DNA of 27,601 nt from Chthonomonas calidirosea (GCA_945859975.1 CAMAPH010000037.1:1-27601), one strand, 5' to 3'; shown: positions 18,651-24,215, numbered from the stretch's first letter. Program-made: numbers and translations. Notes: generated by a model not told the origin, from the letters alone.

Positions 18651-19394
18651 TCAAGCAGAAAGAACCGGAGGTGAATCTTCGGCGGTAATCGAAAGGAAGA
18701 TGTCTTCGAGCGACTGGTCGGCGGTGCCAAATTGTTCGCGCAGTTCCGCAACGGTTCCTTGGGCACGAAGGATGCCGCGCTGGACGATGAGCAACCGGTC
18801 ACAAAGCTTCTCGGCGGTGTCGAGCAGGTGAGTTGAAATGAGGATCGCGGCGCCGGCATCGCGTGCTCGTGTGATCTCATCCTTCAGTTCTCGCGCTCCT
18901 TCTGGGTCGATACCGATCAGAGGCTCGTCGAAGAGCAACACGTTTGCATCGTGAATGAGCGCACAGGCCACGGAGAGTTTCTGACGCATTCCTTTGCTCA
19001 GAGTGGCAACGAGCTCATTTCGCTTGTCAGAAAGTCGGTAGCGCGAAAGCAACGTTTCCTTTTGCGACTCGAATAGGTCCATCCGCTTGAAGCACATGGC
19101 GATGAACTTCAGGTGCTCTTCGACGGTTAGAAGTTCGTAAAGCGCGGGTACTTCGGGGACGAACGCGAGATTTGCTTTTGCCCGGGCTTGGTCCTGCACA
19201 ACATCGAACCCGTTAATGAAGACCTCGCCACCAGTGGGGCGAAGAATGCCCGCGATGCATCGCAAAGCCGTGGTCTTACCTGCCCCGTTTGGCCCCAGCA
19301 ATCCGATGATCTCGCCGGGTTGAACGTTGAAGGTCAAATCATTGACGGCGAGGTGCCGCTTGTACTCTTTGCGCAATCCGCGCACGTCTAACAC
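18651..19394 (-). CDS. ABC transporter ATP-binding protein
   Basis: GPNGAGKTT, LSKGMRQ, LLFDEP, ISTH. The GTG at 19394 gives MLDVRGL and lies 6 nt after a -10-like hexamer (the ORF track starts at TTG 19400). Confidence 0.93.
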   Translation of the reverse strand: MLDVRGLRKEYKRHLAVNDLTFNVQPGEIIGLLGPNGAGKTTALRCIAGILRPTGGEVFINGFDVVQDQARAKANLAFVPEVPALYELLTVEEHLKFIAMCFKRMDLFESQKETLLSRYRLSDKRNELVATLSKGMRQKLSVACALIHDANVLLFDEPLIGIDPEGARELKDEITRARDAGAAILISTHLLDTAEKLCDRLLIVQRGILRAQGTVAELREQFGTADQSLEDIFLSITAEDSPPVLSA

Positions 19395-19400
19395 CAACAA

Positions 19401-19424
19401 TGTTTACCGCACGTTCGGTAAATT
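19401..19424. promoter_or_regulatory. Back-to-back candidate -10 elements for the divergent ABC ATPase and moxR genes
   Basis: Inverted repeat tttaccg-cacgtt-cggtaaa (19403-19422). It gives ggTAAACA 6 nt before GTG on minus and ggTAAATT 7 nt before ATG on plus. Confidence 0.5.
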
Positions 19425-19431
19425 CCGGCCA

Positions 19432-20379
19432 ATGAACGTCGCGCAAATTGCAGAAAAGGTCCTTCTCCAGGTCCGCAAGGCCATCTCTGGGCAGGATGCC
19501 GTGATTGAGCAGGTGCTGGTGGGCATTCTGGCCAACGGTAACATCTTGCTGGAAGGCGTTCCGGGCGTGGCGAAAACGCTCTTAGTTCGGACCGTAGCGC
19601 GGACGTTTGACCTTGAATACGGCCGAGTGCAGTTCACGCCGGACCTGATGCCGAGCGACGTCATCGGCACGAGCATCTTCGATCTTAAGACCAACGAGCT
19701 GCGCCTTCGAAAGGGACCCATCTTTGTGAACGTGCTGCTGGCGGATGAAATCAACCGAACTCCGCCGAAGACCCAAGCGGCGTTGCTTGAGGCCATGGAA
19801 GAGCGGCAGGCGACGATTGACGGTGAGGCCTACCCACTGCCGCCTCCGTTCCTCGTCTTCGCCACCCAAAACCCGATCGACTTTGAAGGTACGTACCCGC
19901 TACCTGAAGCTCAGCAAGACCGATTCTTGCTGAAGGTTCTCGTGAGCTACCCAAGCCAGGAAGAAGAAATTGCCGTAATGAAGCGGCACCATGGCGGATT
20001 CCGGCCGCAGTCGCTTGATCTCGCCGGCATCGAAAAAGTTGTCTCGGTGCAGGAATTGATCGAGCTTCAGGAAGTCGTGCGCCAAACCACCGTCGAAGAC
20101 CGCGTTTTCGACTACATCTATAAAATTGTCCAGGAGACCCGGCGCGCGAATGACCTTCTGGTCGGTGGCTCGCCTCGTGCGGGAATCGCTCTGCTCAACG
20201 CCGGTAAGGCTTTGGCAAGGTTACGAGATCGCGACTTCGTGATTCCAGACGACATCAAGGAACTGAGCCTGCCAGTTTTGCGACACCGTGTGCTCCTGCG
20301 GCCAGAGGCCGAGGTGGAAGGACTCACGGCCGACCAAATTCTCACTTCGATTTTGGATCGCCAGACCGTTCCACGCTGA
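19432..20379 (+). CDS. moxR: MoxR-family AAA+ ATPase
   Basis: LLEGVPGVAKT, RVQFTPDLMPSD, LLADEINR, ATQNPIDFEGTYPLPEAQQDRF, GGSPRA. ATG 19432 is preferred because the 19327 start would overlap the divergent gene. Confidence 0.93.
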   Translation: MNVAQIAEKVLLQVRKAISGQDAVIEQVLVGILANGNILLEGVPGVAKTLLVRTVARTFDLEYGRVQFTPDLMPSDVIGTSIFDLKTNELRLRKGPIFVNVLLADEINRTPPKTQAALLEAMEERQATIDGEAYPLPPPFLVFATQNPIDFEGTYPLPEAQQDRFLLKVLVSYPSQEEEIAVMKRHHGGFRPQSLDLAGIEKVVSVQELIELQEVVRQTTVEDRVFDYIYKIVQETRRANDLLVGGSPRAGIALLNAGKALARLRDRDFVIPDDIKELSLPVLRHRVLLRPEAEVEGLTADQILTSILDRQTVPR

Positions 20380-20388
20380 GCCCGAGGC

Positions 20389-20397
20389 TGGTATAGT
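20389..20397 (+). promoter_or_regulatory. Candidate extended -10 promoter TGgTATAGT
   Basis: TGn followed by TATAGT, 7 nt upstream of the 5' end of the cloverleaf element. Confidence 0.55.
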
Positions 20398-20404
20398 CGC
20401 TGAT

Positions 20405-20459
20405 CGGAGAGCCCAGGAGGGACGATAAGGACGTCGAAGCATGGAAGCTTCCTCCGCCA
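20405..20459 (+). ncRNA. Candidate small RNA: four-way junction with GGA loops (Csr/Rsm-like, tRNA-shaped)
   Basis: Closing stem cggag/ctccg encloses ccc-AGGA-ggg, gacg-ATAAGGA-cgtc and gaagc-ATGGAA-gcttc, followed by CCA. Candidate promoter directly upstream. Confidence 0.55.
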
Positions 20460-20482
20460 TACATTTGCTTGTTCGTCGGATG

Positions 20483-20488
20483 TAACCT
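20483..20488 (+). promoter_or_regulatory. Candidate -10 (TAACCT) for a leaderless nitroreductase transcript
   Basis: TAACCT lies 6 nt before ATG 20495. There is no strong SD at normal spacing. Confidence 0.45.
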
Positions 20489-20494
20489 GACGGC

Positions 20495-21118
20495 ATGGAA
20501 TTTCTCGAAGTACTGAGTTCTCGCCGATCCGTGCCTTCATTTGATCCTTCGGTTTCAATCGACCGAACCGTGCTGCTGGAGATCCTGAACACCGCCAACC
20601 TGGCGCCGAGTTCCATGTGCTTGCAGCAGTGGGAGTACATCGTCTGTGACACCCCGGAGGCGAAAGCCCGGCTTCAGGCCGCTTCCTTCAACCAAAAGAA
20701 GATCACCGAAGCCAGCGCCGTGGTGATCGTTCTGGGCAATTTGAAAGCTGCGGAGCAGCACGCCGAAATCGTCGCTGACGCAAACATGGAAGCGGGCTAC
20801 TTTGGCGAAGACCGCCGGGAGCGCTGGATTGCGAGCGCAAAGAAGGGTTGGCCGACGGAGCGAGTCGAACGCGACGAGGCATTTCGGGGCCCTAGCCTTT
20901 GGGCGATGACTTTCATGCTCGCCGCGAAAGAAGCAGGTTGGGACACCGCGCCGATGGGCGGCTACGAACCGGACAAAGTGATCGCGGAATTTGGACTTCC
21001 GGAGACTCACATCCCGGTCTTACTGATAGCCATCGGTAAGGCAAATCCGGAGATCACGTTGCTTCCGCGGGTGAAGCGCATTCCAGCAGAAACCTTGGCG
21101 CATTTCAATAATTGGTAA
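20495..21118 (+). CDS. Nitroreductase-family flavoprotein
   Basis: SRRSVPSF, LAPSSMCLQQW, MLAAKEAGWDTAPMGGYE, IAIGK. Confidence 0.92.
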   Translation: MEFLEVLSSRRSVPSFDPSVSIDRTVLLEILNTANLAPSSMCLQQWEYIVCDTPEAKARLQAASFNQKKITEASAVVIVLGNLKAAEQHAEIVADANMEAGYFGEDRRERWIASAKKGWPTERVERDEAFRGPSLWAMTFMLAAKEAGWDTAPMGGYEPDKVIAEFGLPETHIPVLLIAIGKANPEITLLPRVKRIPAETLAHFNNW

Positions 21119-21142: not shown

Positions 21143-22069
21143 TTGATCGTGGGAATCACGGCGTTAATCGGCTCGCCCGCGGACAGTTGGAGACACTGGC
21201 TGCGGGAGAATCTCGGTTCGTCCGACCTGCTTTGCCTCAGCCCCAACGAACCTAACCTCGGCCCGCCCGGACAAATTGCTCTGTACCGTGGCGAGGTGCC
21301 GGTTTGGACTCGGTTTTACGGATCGCTGGACGCAACGCGCTCGCCCCACGTGCTCGTGGCCGCGCTGGCTGAGGCGCAGCAACACTTTCGAGACGGCATG
21401 GTGCTGTTTCCCAGTTATCGGCCCAGCCCCGTGCTTGCTCAGACGGTCCGTTTGCTCTTGCGCTTGCTGAACCCAGATGAACTCTTGGTGAGCGAGCGAA
21501 GTGAAACCCCGACCGGCGGCTGGGGAATCCCGCTTGAACCCGAGCCGGTTGAGTTGGCGGCGTCTCTAACGACTCAGGTGCTAGAGGCTCAACGCAAAGC
21601 GCACTGGATGCGGCTTTGGGACGAGTCGTTTGATCATGAGTTGCCGCTTTCCGGCGTGTCGATCGAAGGTCTGCGCTTAGGATCTGGGAAGATGATCGGC
21701 TTTGAGGAGCGCAGGAAGCTCGGCTTAAATTGGTGTTTGCACCTTGAAGTTTCGGCCGCGAGTGCTTTTGCCGTTGTCACCGATTCCCCGACCGAAGAAG
21801 AGATCTCGGAGGTTCTTGACGCGTTTCACGTTCCGAAATTGCATGTTGTGCCTGCATCCGCTTACAAGAGTTTGCTGTGCGGGTTGGCGCGATCGCATGG
21901 TGAGGAGATCGGGATTGGGTTTATTGAGGATATCGACTTTGCGCAGCAGATATTGAAGCTGCGAGCAACGGCTGTTCCGCCCACACCCGTCCCCATTTTG
22001 AAGGTGGGCTCAATCAAAGTCGATCGCGCGGGCCGAGAGTTACCGGAGCCTCGACCTTGGCAAGTGTAG
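21143..22069 (+). CDS. Clp1/Grc3-like polynucleotide-kinase-fold protein with degenerate catalytic motifs
   Basis: LGPPGQIAL, RFYGS, LNPDELL and C-terminal LLCGL..GEEIGIGFIEDIDF..LKVGSIKVDRAGRE resemble prokaryotic Clp1. No GxxxxGKS/T. Start TTG 21143 or GTG 21149. Confidence 0.6.
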   Translation: MIVGITALIGSPADSWRHWLRENLGSSDLLCLSPNEPNLGPPGQIALYRGEVPVWTRFYGSLDATRSPHVLVAALAEAQQHFRDGMVLFPSYRPSPVLAQTVRLLLRLLNPDELLVSERSETPTGGWGIPLEPEPVELAASLTTQVLEAQRKAHWMRLWDESFDHELPLSGVSIEGLRLGSGKMIGFEERRKLGLNWCLHLEVSAASAFAVVTDSPTEEEISEVLDAFHVPKLHVVPASAYKSLLCGLARSHGEEIGIGFIEDIDFAQQILKLRATAVPPTPVPILKVGSIKVDRAGRELPEPRPWQV

Positions 22070-22731: not shown

Positions 22732-24215
22732 AAAAGGCGAAAGAAGTTCTTAAGAAAGTTGGCCCTGGACTTGCAACCGGCATCTTGCTGATGCTGGCCT
22801 TTCCGCCGTTTGGATTTGCCCTAGTTCTCCTTGTAGCGCTTGTTCCTTGGCTCATTTCGCTTCGAGAGATGGATCACAAGCAGGCTTGGAAAAGCGGCTA
22901 TGGGATGGGGATTTGGTACGGTGCTAGCCAGCTCTTCTGGGTTTTCGGATTCATTCTCAAGTGGACGGGTAGTCCGGTCTACGGCGCTATCCCGTGGGTG
23001 ATTGTCACCATCCTCTTTGCGATCTATTACGGCCTCGTTGGGATGGCAATTTCGAAATGCTATCGGGCCGACAAGGGATGGATGATCCCGCTGGTTTGGG
23101 CAGGAATGGAGACGTTTCGATCCTATATTCCGATTTTGGCGTTTCCTTGGAGTCTCTTGGCGGCACCACTGGGAAGGTATCCGGAGTTCATTCAAGGGGC
23201 TTACTTCGGCACGATCTTCTTGGTGAGTGCGGCCCTTGTGGCGGTAAATGTGTTGGCCGCAGAAGTTTTCGGAAAGCCGAAGGGCCGAACCTGGATCGCC
23301 ATGGCAGTGTGGATCACCGCGTATTTGGCGCTCAACTTTGGCCGGGCAGCGATGCAAACGGATACCAAGCCGGTAAGAGTCGGCCTGTTACAACCGGGAG
23401 AAGACCTAGCCTTCGGCGATAGCAATACCGAGTTCACGCGCTTGTTATCTCGTTTTGGAGAACTCCTTCCGATTGCGCTGGATAGCAAGCCAGAACTGAT
23501 TGTCATGCCGGAAGGAATCACTTCTGCGCCTACAATGCCGCCTTCGGTGCCGTTCTATCTTCCCGAAAAGACGCCGGTGCTTTTTGGCGGACAACGCAGT
23601 AAGAAGCCGACCTTTCAGAGCGCGTTTTTGTTTAGCAACCAATCTTGGAAGTACGCGGACAAAACTCGACTCGTTATTTTCGGGGAGTTTGTTCCGTTCC
23701 GGCAGTATCTCCCGAAAGGATTCAATTTGCCTTCGGGAGACTTGGAAGAAAGCAAAGATGGGCTGAAACAATTCACGTTGCCGTTTGCAAAGGTTGGACC
23801 CATCTTGTGTTTTGAGGCGCTTTTCCCGGATATCTCGTGGCGTCACGCCAACTCCGGCACCACGATGATTGCCGTGATGAGCATTGATGACTGGTTCATG
23901 GGCACTCCCGCAATTGAACAGTTGCGCACCGCATCGGTTTGGCGAGCGGTGGAAACCGGCAATCCGATTGCCCGCGTGGGAGGTCTCGGAGCGACTTTTG
24001 CCGTGACCGGGCGGGGTGTTGTCCTTGACGAGGCACCGATTGGACCGCCAGCGGCAATGGTGGTCGAGCTTCCAGTTCCCAAGAAGCCTTCCAGCTTTAT
24101 CGGCACTTTGGCCTTTCCCGTGATCTCCCTTGGATTCTTCTGGGCAGGCGTGCTTTTCCGGTTCTCGAACCCGACTCCCGGCAAAAAGAACCGTGGAAAG
24201 AATAAGGTGGTTTGA
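22728..24215 (+). CDS. lnt: Apolipoprotein N-acyltransferase
   Basis: N-terminal TM domain with FPW. Nitrilase triad motifs MPEG, DKTRLVIFGEFVP, ILCFEALF, plus DDWF and RAVETG. GTGA overlap with the upstream gene. Confidence 0.93.
   Translation: MKKAKEVLKKVGPGLATGILLMLAFPPFGFALVLLVALVPWLISLREMDHKQAWKSGYGMGIWYGASQLFWVFGFILKWTGSPVYGAIPWVIVTILFAIYYGLVGMAISKCYRADKGWMIPLVWAGMETFRSYIPILAFPWSLLAAPLGRYPEFIQGAYFGTIFLVSAALVAVNVLAAEVFGKPKGRTWIAMAVWITAYLALNFGRAAMQTDTKPVRVGLLQPGEDLAFGDSNTEFTRLLSRFGELLPIALDSKPELIVMPEGITSAPTMPPSVPFYLPEKTPVLFGGQRSKKPTFQSAFLFSNQSWKYADKTRLVIFGEFVPFRQYLPKGFNLPSGDLEESKDGLKQFTLPFAKVGPILCFEALFPDISWRHANSGTTMIAVMSIDDWFMGTPAIEQLRTASVWRAVETGNPIARVGGLGATFAVTGRGVVLDEAPIGPPAAMVVELPVPKKPSSFIGTLAFPVISLGFFWAGVLFRFSNPTPGKKNRGKNKVV

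Follow-up and report, generated by a model that had tools for sequence, protein, structure and literature searches.

The closest described counterparts of the RNA reported here are RsmZ, RsmY and RsmX and CsrB and CsrC of the Gammaproteobacteria (Rfam clan CL00106), which are independently transcribed, display GGA motifs in short hairpin loops and in linkers, and end at a terminator in some members. Known Csr/Rsm families carry 5–22 sites, and the longer consensus of a CsrA/RsmE site reads (A/U)CANGGANG(U/A). According to one account (PMC4894983), CsrA-antagonist small RNAs are described for the Gammaproteobacteria, FliW is the described antagonist elsewhere, and many CsrA-bearing bacteria have no known RNA antagonist; the same source gives ANGGA in hairpin loops as the described CsrA site and reports that CsrB/C and FliW are anti-correlated. 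The other comparison is with the CsrA-binding flagellin leaders of C. jejuni flaA and B. subtilis hag, in which two A-N-GGA motifs occupy adjacent hairpin loops together with a ribosome-binding-like motif. In the flaA leader the two adjacent loops are ANGGA hexaloops that confer high affinity, and this leader can titrate CsrA, in the account cited above (PMC4894983).

The family to which our locus belongs resembles both groups. It shares with the Csr/Rsm RNAs a predicted independent transcription, the placement of GGA in short loops and in a linker, and a terminator in some members, and with the flagellin leaders the pair of A-N-GGA loops accompanied by a ribosome-binding-like motif. It differs from the Csr/Rsm RNAs in showing no sequence homology to them, in staying below the Rfam thresholds of CsrB, CsrC, RsmX, RsmY and PrrB_RsmZ, in packing three sites into 50–70 nt, in forming a three-way junction rather than a string of stem-loops, and in belonging to the Armatimonadota; unlike CsrB/C, it co-occurs with FliW in most genomes. 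An Rfam scan of 20 family loci yielded a single overlapping match, to PrrB/RsmZ at locus L130, where the match covers the full length of the model with GGA hairpins and terminator in register but reaches 23.9 bits where the threshold is 44; the other 19 loci gave nothing. In contrast to the flagellin leaders, the new RNA is unattached to a flagellin gene, persists in the genome studied here (G000) where flagellin and FliW are absent, and in many members is not followed by a same-strand gene. A likeness to tRNA, confined to G000, consists of a junction with four stems, a middle loop of 7 nt and a CCA trinucleotide, whereas D-loop and T-loop consensus sequences are absent from the element.

The window, by which we mean the whole 27,601-nt stretch analysed (CAMAPH010000037.1 of assembly GCA_945859975.1, Chthonomonas calidirosea), comes from an assembly of 3.12 Mb in 101 contigs. 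The small-RNA element sits in a spacer of 115 nt, flanked upstream by the gene for a MoxR-type AAA+ ATPase (19327–20379) and downstream by a nitroreductase gene. The initial annotation had described stems, GGA-bearing loops, a −10 box and a CCA end in this spacer, and every coordinate matches the sequence. The parts are as follows.

20389–20397, plus strand: putative extended −10 promoter box TGgTATAGT (TGGTATAGT), read from the sequence and identical in G045, an 82%-identical relative, and in loci L019–L022.
20405–20456, plus strand: small-RNA core, from first to last base of stem P1; 72.6 bits with model R2 and 62 bits with model R3, scores that are not independent since the G000 sequence was among those used to build both models.
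20405–20409, plus strand: 5′ strand of P1, cggag, pairing with 20452–20456; changes on both sides occur at all five pairs across the family.
20412–20421, plus strand: P2 hairpin ccc-AGGA-ggg, shortened from the family hairpin CACC...GGUG with A-N-GGA in the loop.
20421–20435, plus strand: middle arm gacg-AUAAGGA-cgtc, lineage-specific, equivalent to the single-stranded junction G(U/A)AACGGAGG(A/U)C of the family.
20436–20451, plus strand: P4 hairpin gaagc-AUGGAA-gcuuc, with a C-A-N-G-G-A-N-G hexaloop.
20452–20456, plus strand: 3′ strand of P1, ctccg, partner of 20405–20409.
20457–20494, plus strand: spacer up to the nitroreductase start, with a conserved hairpin at 20474–20492 and no terminator.
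20495–21118, plus strand: nitroreductase gene (Pfam PF00881, E 4.9e-24), the same-strand downstream neighbour.

The A-N-GGA or GGA motifs lie at 20415–20418, 20427–20431 and 20441–20445, the CCA trinucleotide at 20457–20459 follows directly 3′ of the closing stem, and the nitroreductase gene starts 38 nt downstream of the element. The extended −10 box is not accompanied by a good −35 element; a scan for standard two-hexamer σ70 promoters around the RNA element returned 0 sites, and no terminator-like site was found on either strand between 20250 and 20650. The 6-bp hairpin cgtcgg-atgtaac-ctgacg (20474–20492) stops 2 nt ahead of the nitroreductase start codon and is unchanged in G045 and L020 although adjacent bases vary; upstream of the nitroreductase ATG there is no obvious ribosome-binding sequence. 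A small upstream open reading frame of 14 codons (ATG at 20441, TAA at 20485) was rejected because its ATG falls on the degenerate N of the P4 loop, a position that reads ACG, AGG or AAG in most family members; 4 of its 14 residues differ in G045. Further downstream, positions 21143–22069 encode a 308-aa protein with no Pfam match and ~40% identity across the genus; its gene usually follows the small RNA directly and is itself followed by one for a histidine phosphatase.

The minimum-energy structure that RNAfold predicts for 20398–20465 is the cloverleaf originally described, with a first arm of 2 bp and an energy of −16.9 kcal/mol. The z-score of the fold was +0.16, 101 of 200 shuffles folding at least as well, and it was +1.84 when flanks were included. 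The minus strand folds slightly better (z = −1.29); the plus strand is favoured because the P4 and P1 stems of relatives contain G-U pairs and because the predicted promoter points that way. With five GGA in 52 nt, the element ranks among the richest 0.10% of windows in the 3.12-Mb genome. Three adjacent GGA-loop mini-hairpins within 52 nt occurred 114 times in the genome versus 84–131 times in five Markov simulations, and the same triple pattern with a 5-bp closing stem twice versus 0–4 times. A second triple site of this kind within 52 nt lies at 23268–23317 of the window and is expected at chance frequency. With both fold energy and pattern frequency at the level of chance, one sequence alone cannot separate the element from a fortuitous arrangement, and what lifts it beyond chance comes from relatives only, through conservation, covariation and a conserved promoter. 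A model search found no further copy in this genome, so that the element is single-copy.

Close relatives point to constraint on the spacer. It is identical in G014, a genome 98% identical overall, and the nitroreductase encoded at locus L021 is identical as well. Across contigs of three other runs, 22 sites vary between 20100 and 20800 and 0 between 20354 and 20592, the population contigs thus having 0 variable sites in the 115-nt spacer versus 22 in flanking coding sequence. The invariant stretch of 239 nt (20354–20592) reaches 26 nt into moxR on one side and 98 nt into the nitroreductase gene on the other, and covers synonymous positions at the moxR end and in the first 33 nitroreductase codons. 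The metagenome relative L019 showed 1 difference in the spacer versus 10 among the 36 bases that open the nitroreductase coding sequence, and G045 differed from the window across 20405–20456 by only 3 substitutions, all at unpaired positions (20411, 20428 and 20446). Judged by these comparisons, the window copy is under selection. No covariation was seen among these closest relatives, in which all 16 pairs are invariant and the comparison is uninformative.

Covariance model R1, built from few close relatives, gave matches of 25–29 bits in other species of the genus; these matches shared a motif, and two rebuilding rounds produced models R2 and R3. With R2, exactly one match per genome was obtained in 22 of the 46 genus genomes, with E values from 1e-6 to 1e-20. 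With R3, matches were found in 101 of 151 sampled Fimbriimonadales genomes, representing 43 of 55 genera; 92 of these had E ≤ 3e-9 and 9 were weak, 8 of the weak ones being the only matches in family f4. Elsewhere in the phylum, 5 of 137 sampled genomes matched, all weakly (25–27 bits). These tallies include G079, an unpublished genome, whose locus L084 was excluded from all alignments. Both csrA and FliW occur in family f4, from which 29 genomes were sampled, and its matches to the RNA model are weak ones in 8 genomes (E 5e-4 to 0.01); the RNA in this family has been either lost or strongly diverged. The comparison thus shows the window element to be a remodelled copy of a once-per-genome RNA family across Fimbriimonadales (phylum Armatimonadota). 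Rfam 15 does not contain this family, and the window gave nothing at gathering threshold nor at E ≤ 10 over the element; the unrelated known RNA family against which the initial annotation had asked for a check did not emerge. The literature searched, on CsrA, small RNAs, riboswitches and RNA motifs in Armatimonadetes or Fimbriimonas, contained no description of such an RNA.

The consensus runs P1, (G)UCACC, A-N-GGA, 2–5 further bases, GGUGG(U/A)AACGGAGG(A/U)CGGAGC, A-N-GGA-N, GCUCC and P1′, and its fold is a three-way junction in which a variable P1 closes P2 and P4, with a 12-nt single strand between the two hairpins. P1 mostly comprises 4–7 bp at its base and occurs as GGAG/CUCC, GGCC/GGCC, GGCU/AGCC and GGAA/UUCC. 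When 94 distinct sequences are fitted to the model, pairing holds in 96.1% of cells, 11 of the 14 pairs change on both sides (145 cells), and the covariation score was 0.345 versus 0.103 for shuffled alignments (reached in 0 of 500), with slid controls pairing at 37–54%. A model-fitted alignment is biased towards its model, and the count was therefore repeated on 92 sequences that MAFFT had aligned blind to structure. Pairing then held in 89.4% of cells, two-sided changes occurred at 10 of 14 pairs, the covariation score was 0.255 versus 0.114 shuffled (0 of 500), and slid controls paired at 45–56%. RNAalifold applied to the MAFFT alignment recovered P2 and P4 and missed P1, because the variable sequence of P1 aligns poorly in MAFFT; P1 was found in each sequence on outward extension. 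In P4, 99.8% of cells pair in the model-fitted and 97.2% in the structure-blind alignment. This stem shows G-C, A-U and G-U exchanges, GAAGC/GCUUC in G000 being a double change relative to GGAGC/GCUCC. Taken together, the 92 strong members, the covariation and the predicted promoter make this, on comparative grounds, a well-supported new family of structured RNA.

This family structure settles several points of the initial annotation. Of its elements, the closing stem, the first arm and the third arm are conserved and covary, and the middle arm is absent from the family: that hairpin is confined to the lineage of G000, G014, G045 and L019–L022, and the aligned bases of other members are unable to pair. 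In the G000 lineage P2 was shortened and the junction refolded into a hairpin, with all three motifs kept. The tRNA-like geometry suggested earlier does not hold for a three-way junction whose middle arm occurs in one lineage and whose CCA end lacks conservation. Maturation by tRNA-processing enzymes finds no support either; U-tails or terminator hairpins mark the end of the RNA in other members. As to a tRNA or tmRNA proper, ARAGORN predicted 0 genes in the window and Rfam gave no tRNA match, and this candidate was rejected.

The GGA motifs that the initial annotation had noticed in the loops turned out to be conserved across the family as A-N-GGA. Among the 94 distinct sequences, the P4 loop contains A-N-GGA in 90, nearly always as a hexaloop with C-G closure and with N being C in 30, G in 28, A in 23 and U in 9; loop and closing pair read C-A-N-G-G-A-N-G in most members and C-AUGGAA-G in G000. 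The junction carries A-N-GGA in 86 of 94 (AAGGA in G000, ACGGA in G045), and the P2 loop GGA in 83 and A-N-GGA in 76. GGA is present at all three sites in 76 members; it is missing from P2 in 11, from the junction in 7 and from P4 in 1. The P4 loop therefore has the form expected of a CsrA/RsmE site, A-N-GGA in a short hairpin loop, in 90 of 94 members, and with three A-N-GGA the RNA exposes the several GGA in loops or single strands that are characteristic of the sponge class. No complementary partner for the three purine-rich elements was found inside the RNA, an observation more in keeping with their presentation to a protein than with tertiary pairing.

The initial annotation had placed a separate small RNA gene here, with a start near 20404–20406, and the family supports this: a −10 box is suitably placed in 65 of 84 distinct members. 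In these members a TAnnnT box begins 15 to 8 nt upstream of the P1 base, versus 3.3% at random positions of the same loci, and the combination of a −10 box with TTG at 16–18-nt spacing is present in 20 of 84 versus 0.08% background, several putative promoters reading TTGACA or TTGCAT, 17 nt, and TATACT or TATAAT. From this conserved position of the −10 box, the transcript should begin at the base of P1 (~20403–20406 in the window). In nine members of the genus (L032, L031, L043, L044, L046, L049 and L051–L053) a GGAAC(T/A)TT or GGAACG box lies ~17 nt upstream of a −10-like box, and in three of the nine the −10 region reads CGTT; this arrangement resembles promoters of ECF sigma factors and might indicate stress control of the RNA. 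At the putative 3′ end, at least 5 T occur within the first 10 nt past P1 in 30 of 84 members, and a few members (L057, L078, L093, L101 and L130) carry an extended U run or else a distinct terminator hairpin.

The gene neighbourhood varies. In 39 of 88 loci, judged from rough ORF calls, the RNA faces a convergent ORF downstream, and of the 18 convergent ORFs that end ≤48 nt from the RNA, 10 carry Pfam domains, including RibBA, TatD, epimerase and HhH-GPD. Within the genus, the next same-strand gene encodes the nitroreductase in 7 of 21 loci and a 305-aa protein without Pfam domains in 9 of 21. In G055 (L037, G055:C9:17403–17471) the RNA and its −10 box are inverted within an otherwise conserved gene order of moxR, a 285-aa gene, the RNA, a 305-aa gene and a phosphatase gene; in G021 and G051 the RNA lies between two opposite-strand genes. 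Because of these convergent and heterogeneous neighbours and the inverted G055 copy, the family cannot be an obligate 5′ leader, and its members are, as predicted from promoter and context, independent small RNA genes. For G000 itself, the absence of a terminator suggests that the RNA is probably also the 5′ end of the nitroreductase message, with probable read-through into that gene.

The genome does encode the protein that the initial annotation had asked about: csrA is present in G000 at C26:8873–9028 (91.8 bits), with a 63-aa product that aligns to RsmE of the RsmE-RNA structures (2jpp, E 5e-19) and retains MLxLTRK and VHRxEIY. The gene (L002:1465–1656, minus strand) stands alone, its neighbours being what we take, from our own ORF reading, to be a ribF-like gene, a membrane-protein ORF and a thymidylate-kinase-like gene. 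Neither FliW nor flagellin was found in the G000 genome, leaving its CsrA without known antagonist or classical target. csrA was detected in all 46 genus genomes and in 147 of 151 genomes of the order sample, and since it is near-universal, its co-occurrence with the RNA is uninformative; 24 of the 46 genus genomes have csrA and no detectable RNA, and G153 (97% complete) has the RNA with no csrA or fliW detected. FliW is missing from 16 of 46 genus genomes, and within the genus the RNA was present in 14 of the 16 genomes without FliW versus 8 of the 30 with it. Across the order, the RNA was found in at least 83 of 130 genomes with FliW and in 17 of 20 among the FliW-less genomes listed. The idea that the RNA replaces FliW was rejected, as the genus pattern fails order-wide and most RNA-bearing genomes also have FliW; the pattern within the genus probably reflects shared ancestry. 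In five flagellated relatives, CA[CU]GGAGGA occurs at the ribosome-binding site of 5 of 10 flagellin genes and resembles the RNA junction.

Binding of CsrA by the RNA is the best reading of these data, one that we put at about an even chance on the strength of the motif match. It is supported by the conservation of A-N-GGA at three sites with N fully degenerate and the hexaloop closed by C-G, by the G000 lineage having rebuilt the scaffold and kept all three motifs, and by the RsmE-like csrA, the flagellin leaders that resemble the junction and the sub-threshold match of L130 to PrrB/RsmZ. It is weakened in turn by the small sponge capacity of three sites per RNA, by GGAGG being also a plain ribosome-binding sequence, by the csrA-positive genomes that lack the RNA together with G153 and the members that lack a GGA, and by a single-sequence fold and pattern frequency at chance. 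The P2 and P4 stems, moreover, are more conserved in sequence than pairing needs, which leaves room for a different partner. A genuine conserved small RNA whose partner is another protein, the 30S subunit through GGAGG mimicry, or an RNA base-paired by a junction seed would draw equally on the family, structure and promoter evidence, and we regard it as possible though less likely. The near-invariance of the junction G(U/A)AACGGAGG(A/U)C and of the stems CACC/GGUG and GGAGC/GCUCC goes beyond what CsrA sites need, and the presence of csrA does not discriminate, G153 having the RNA without a detected csrA. Against such a partner stand two loops with A-N-GGA and degenerate N, which suit a symmetric dimer like CsrA as portrayed in one source (PMC4894983), and three purine-rich elements whose complement is absent from the RNA. 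The G000 lineage, too, altered both the sequence and the fold of the junction and retained A-N-GGA. For base pairing in particular, the targets of GGAGG would be pyrimidine-rich, which is unusual for translation-control sites.

The locus taken singly could also be read as a cis-acting 5′ leader of the nitroreductase operon, either riboswitch-like with P1 serving as a terminator or a 5′ structure that protects against decay, and for this the 38 nt without a terminator up to the nitroreductase start, the nitroreductase or 305-aa protein gene as next same-strand gene in 16 of 21 genus loci, the U-rich tract past P1 in part of the family, and an invariant stretch that extends 98 nt into the nitroreductase gene can be cited. 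We consider it unlikely. Riboswitches and 5′ leaders lie consistently upstream of related same-strand genes; order-wide the downstream genes here are heterogeneous, 39 of 88 being convergent and 10 of the convergent ORFs within 48 nt having Pfam domains, and the G055 copy is inverted while those of G021 and G051 lie between opposite-strand genes. A required cis role for the family is thus excluded, and an added cis effect in G000 is possible. A functionless chance arrangement, or a tRNA-like or tRNA-derived element, could appeal to the z-score of +0.16, to the equal frequency of the pattern in simulated genomes and to the short stems, and is highly improbable: the 92 strong one-per-genome matches, the covariation and the conserved promoter speak against chance, and the lack of an ARAGORN tRNA or an Rfam tRNA match, with the four-arm shape and CCA not conserved, against a tRNA. 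As far as these tools show, the comparative data already refute both.

Positions 20389–20456 comprise a putative −10 box and then a 52-nt structured RNA. Transcription is predicted to begin at the base of P1 and, in some members of the family, to end at a U-tail past P1 or at a later terminator. Under the CsrA reading, the three unpaired A-N-GGA (P2 loop, junction and P4 hexaloop) would bind dimeric CsrA, which is RsmE-like in G000, and the RNA would act as a small decoy that titrates CsrA off messenger RNAs, a sponge action suggested by the same motifs. In G000 the RNA might additionally serve as a CsrA-bound 5′ leader. We tentatively propose, at somewhat below an even chance, that this is the first CsrA-sequestering small RNA family outside Proteobacteria: a three-site, three-way-junction decoy, independently invented in Fimbriimonadales, that would stand beside FliW in most of the order and be the sole known antagonist where flagellin and FliW were lost but CsrA was kept.

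Whatever its partner, the RNA represents a well-supported new structured RNA family in a poorly studied phylum. If the proposal is true, RNA decoys for CsrA would have arisen more than once and could coexist with FliW, and the family would provide a natural scaffold of 52–70 nt on which the bridging of two loops by one CsrA dimer could be studied.
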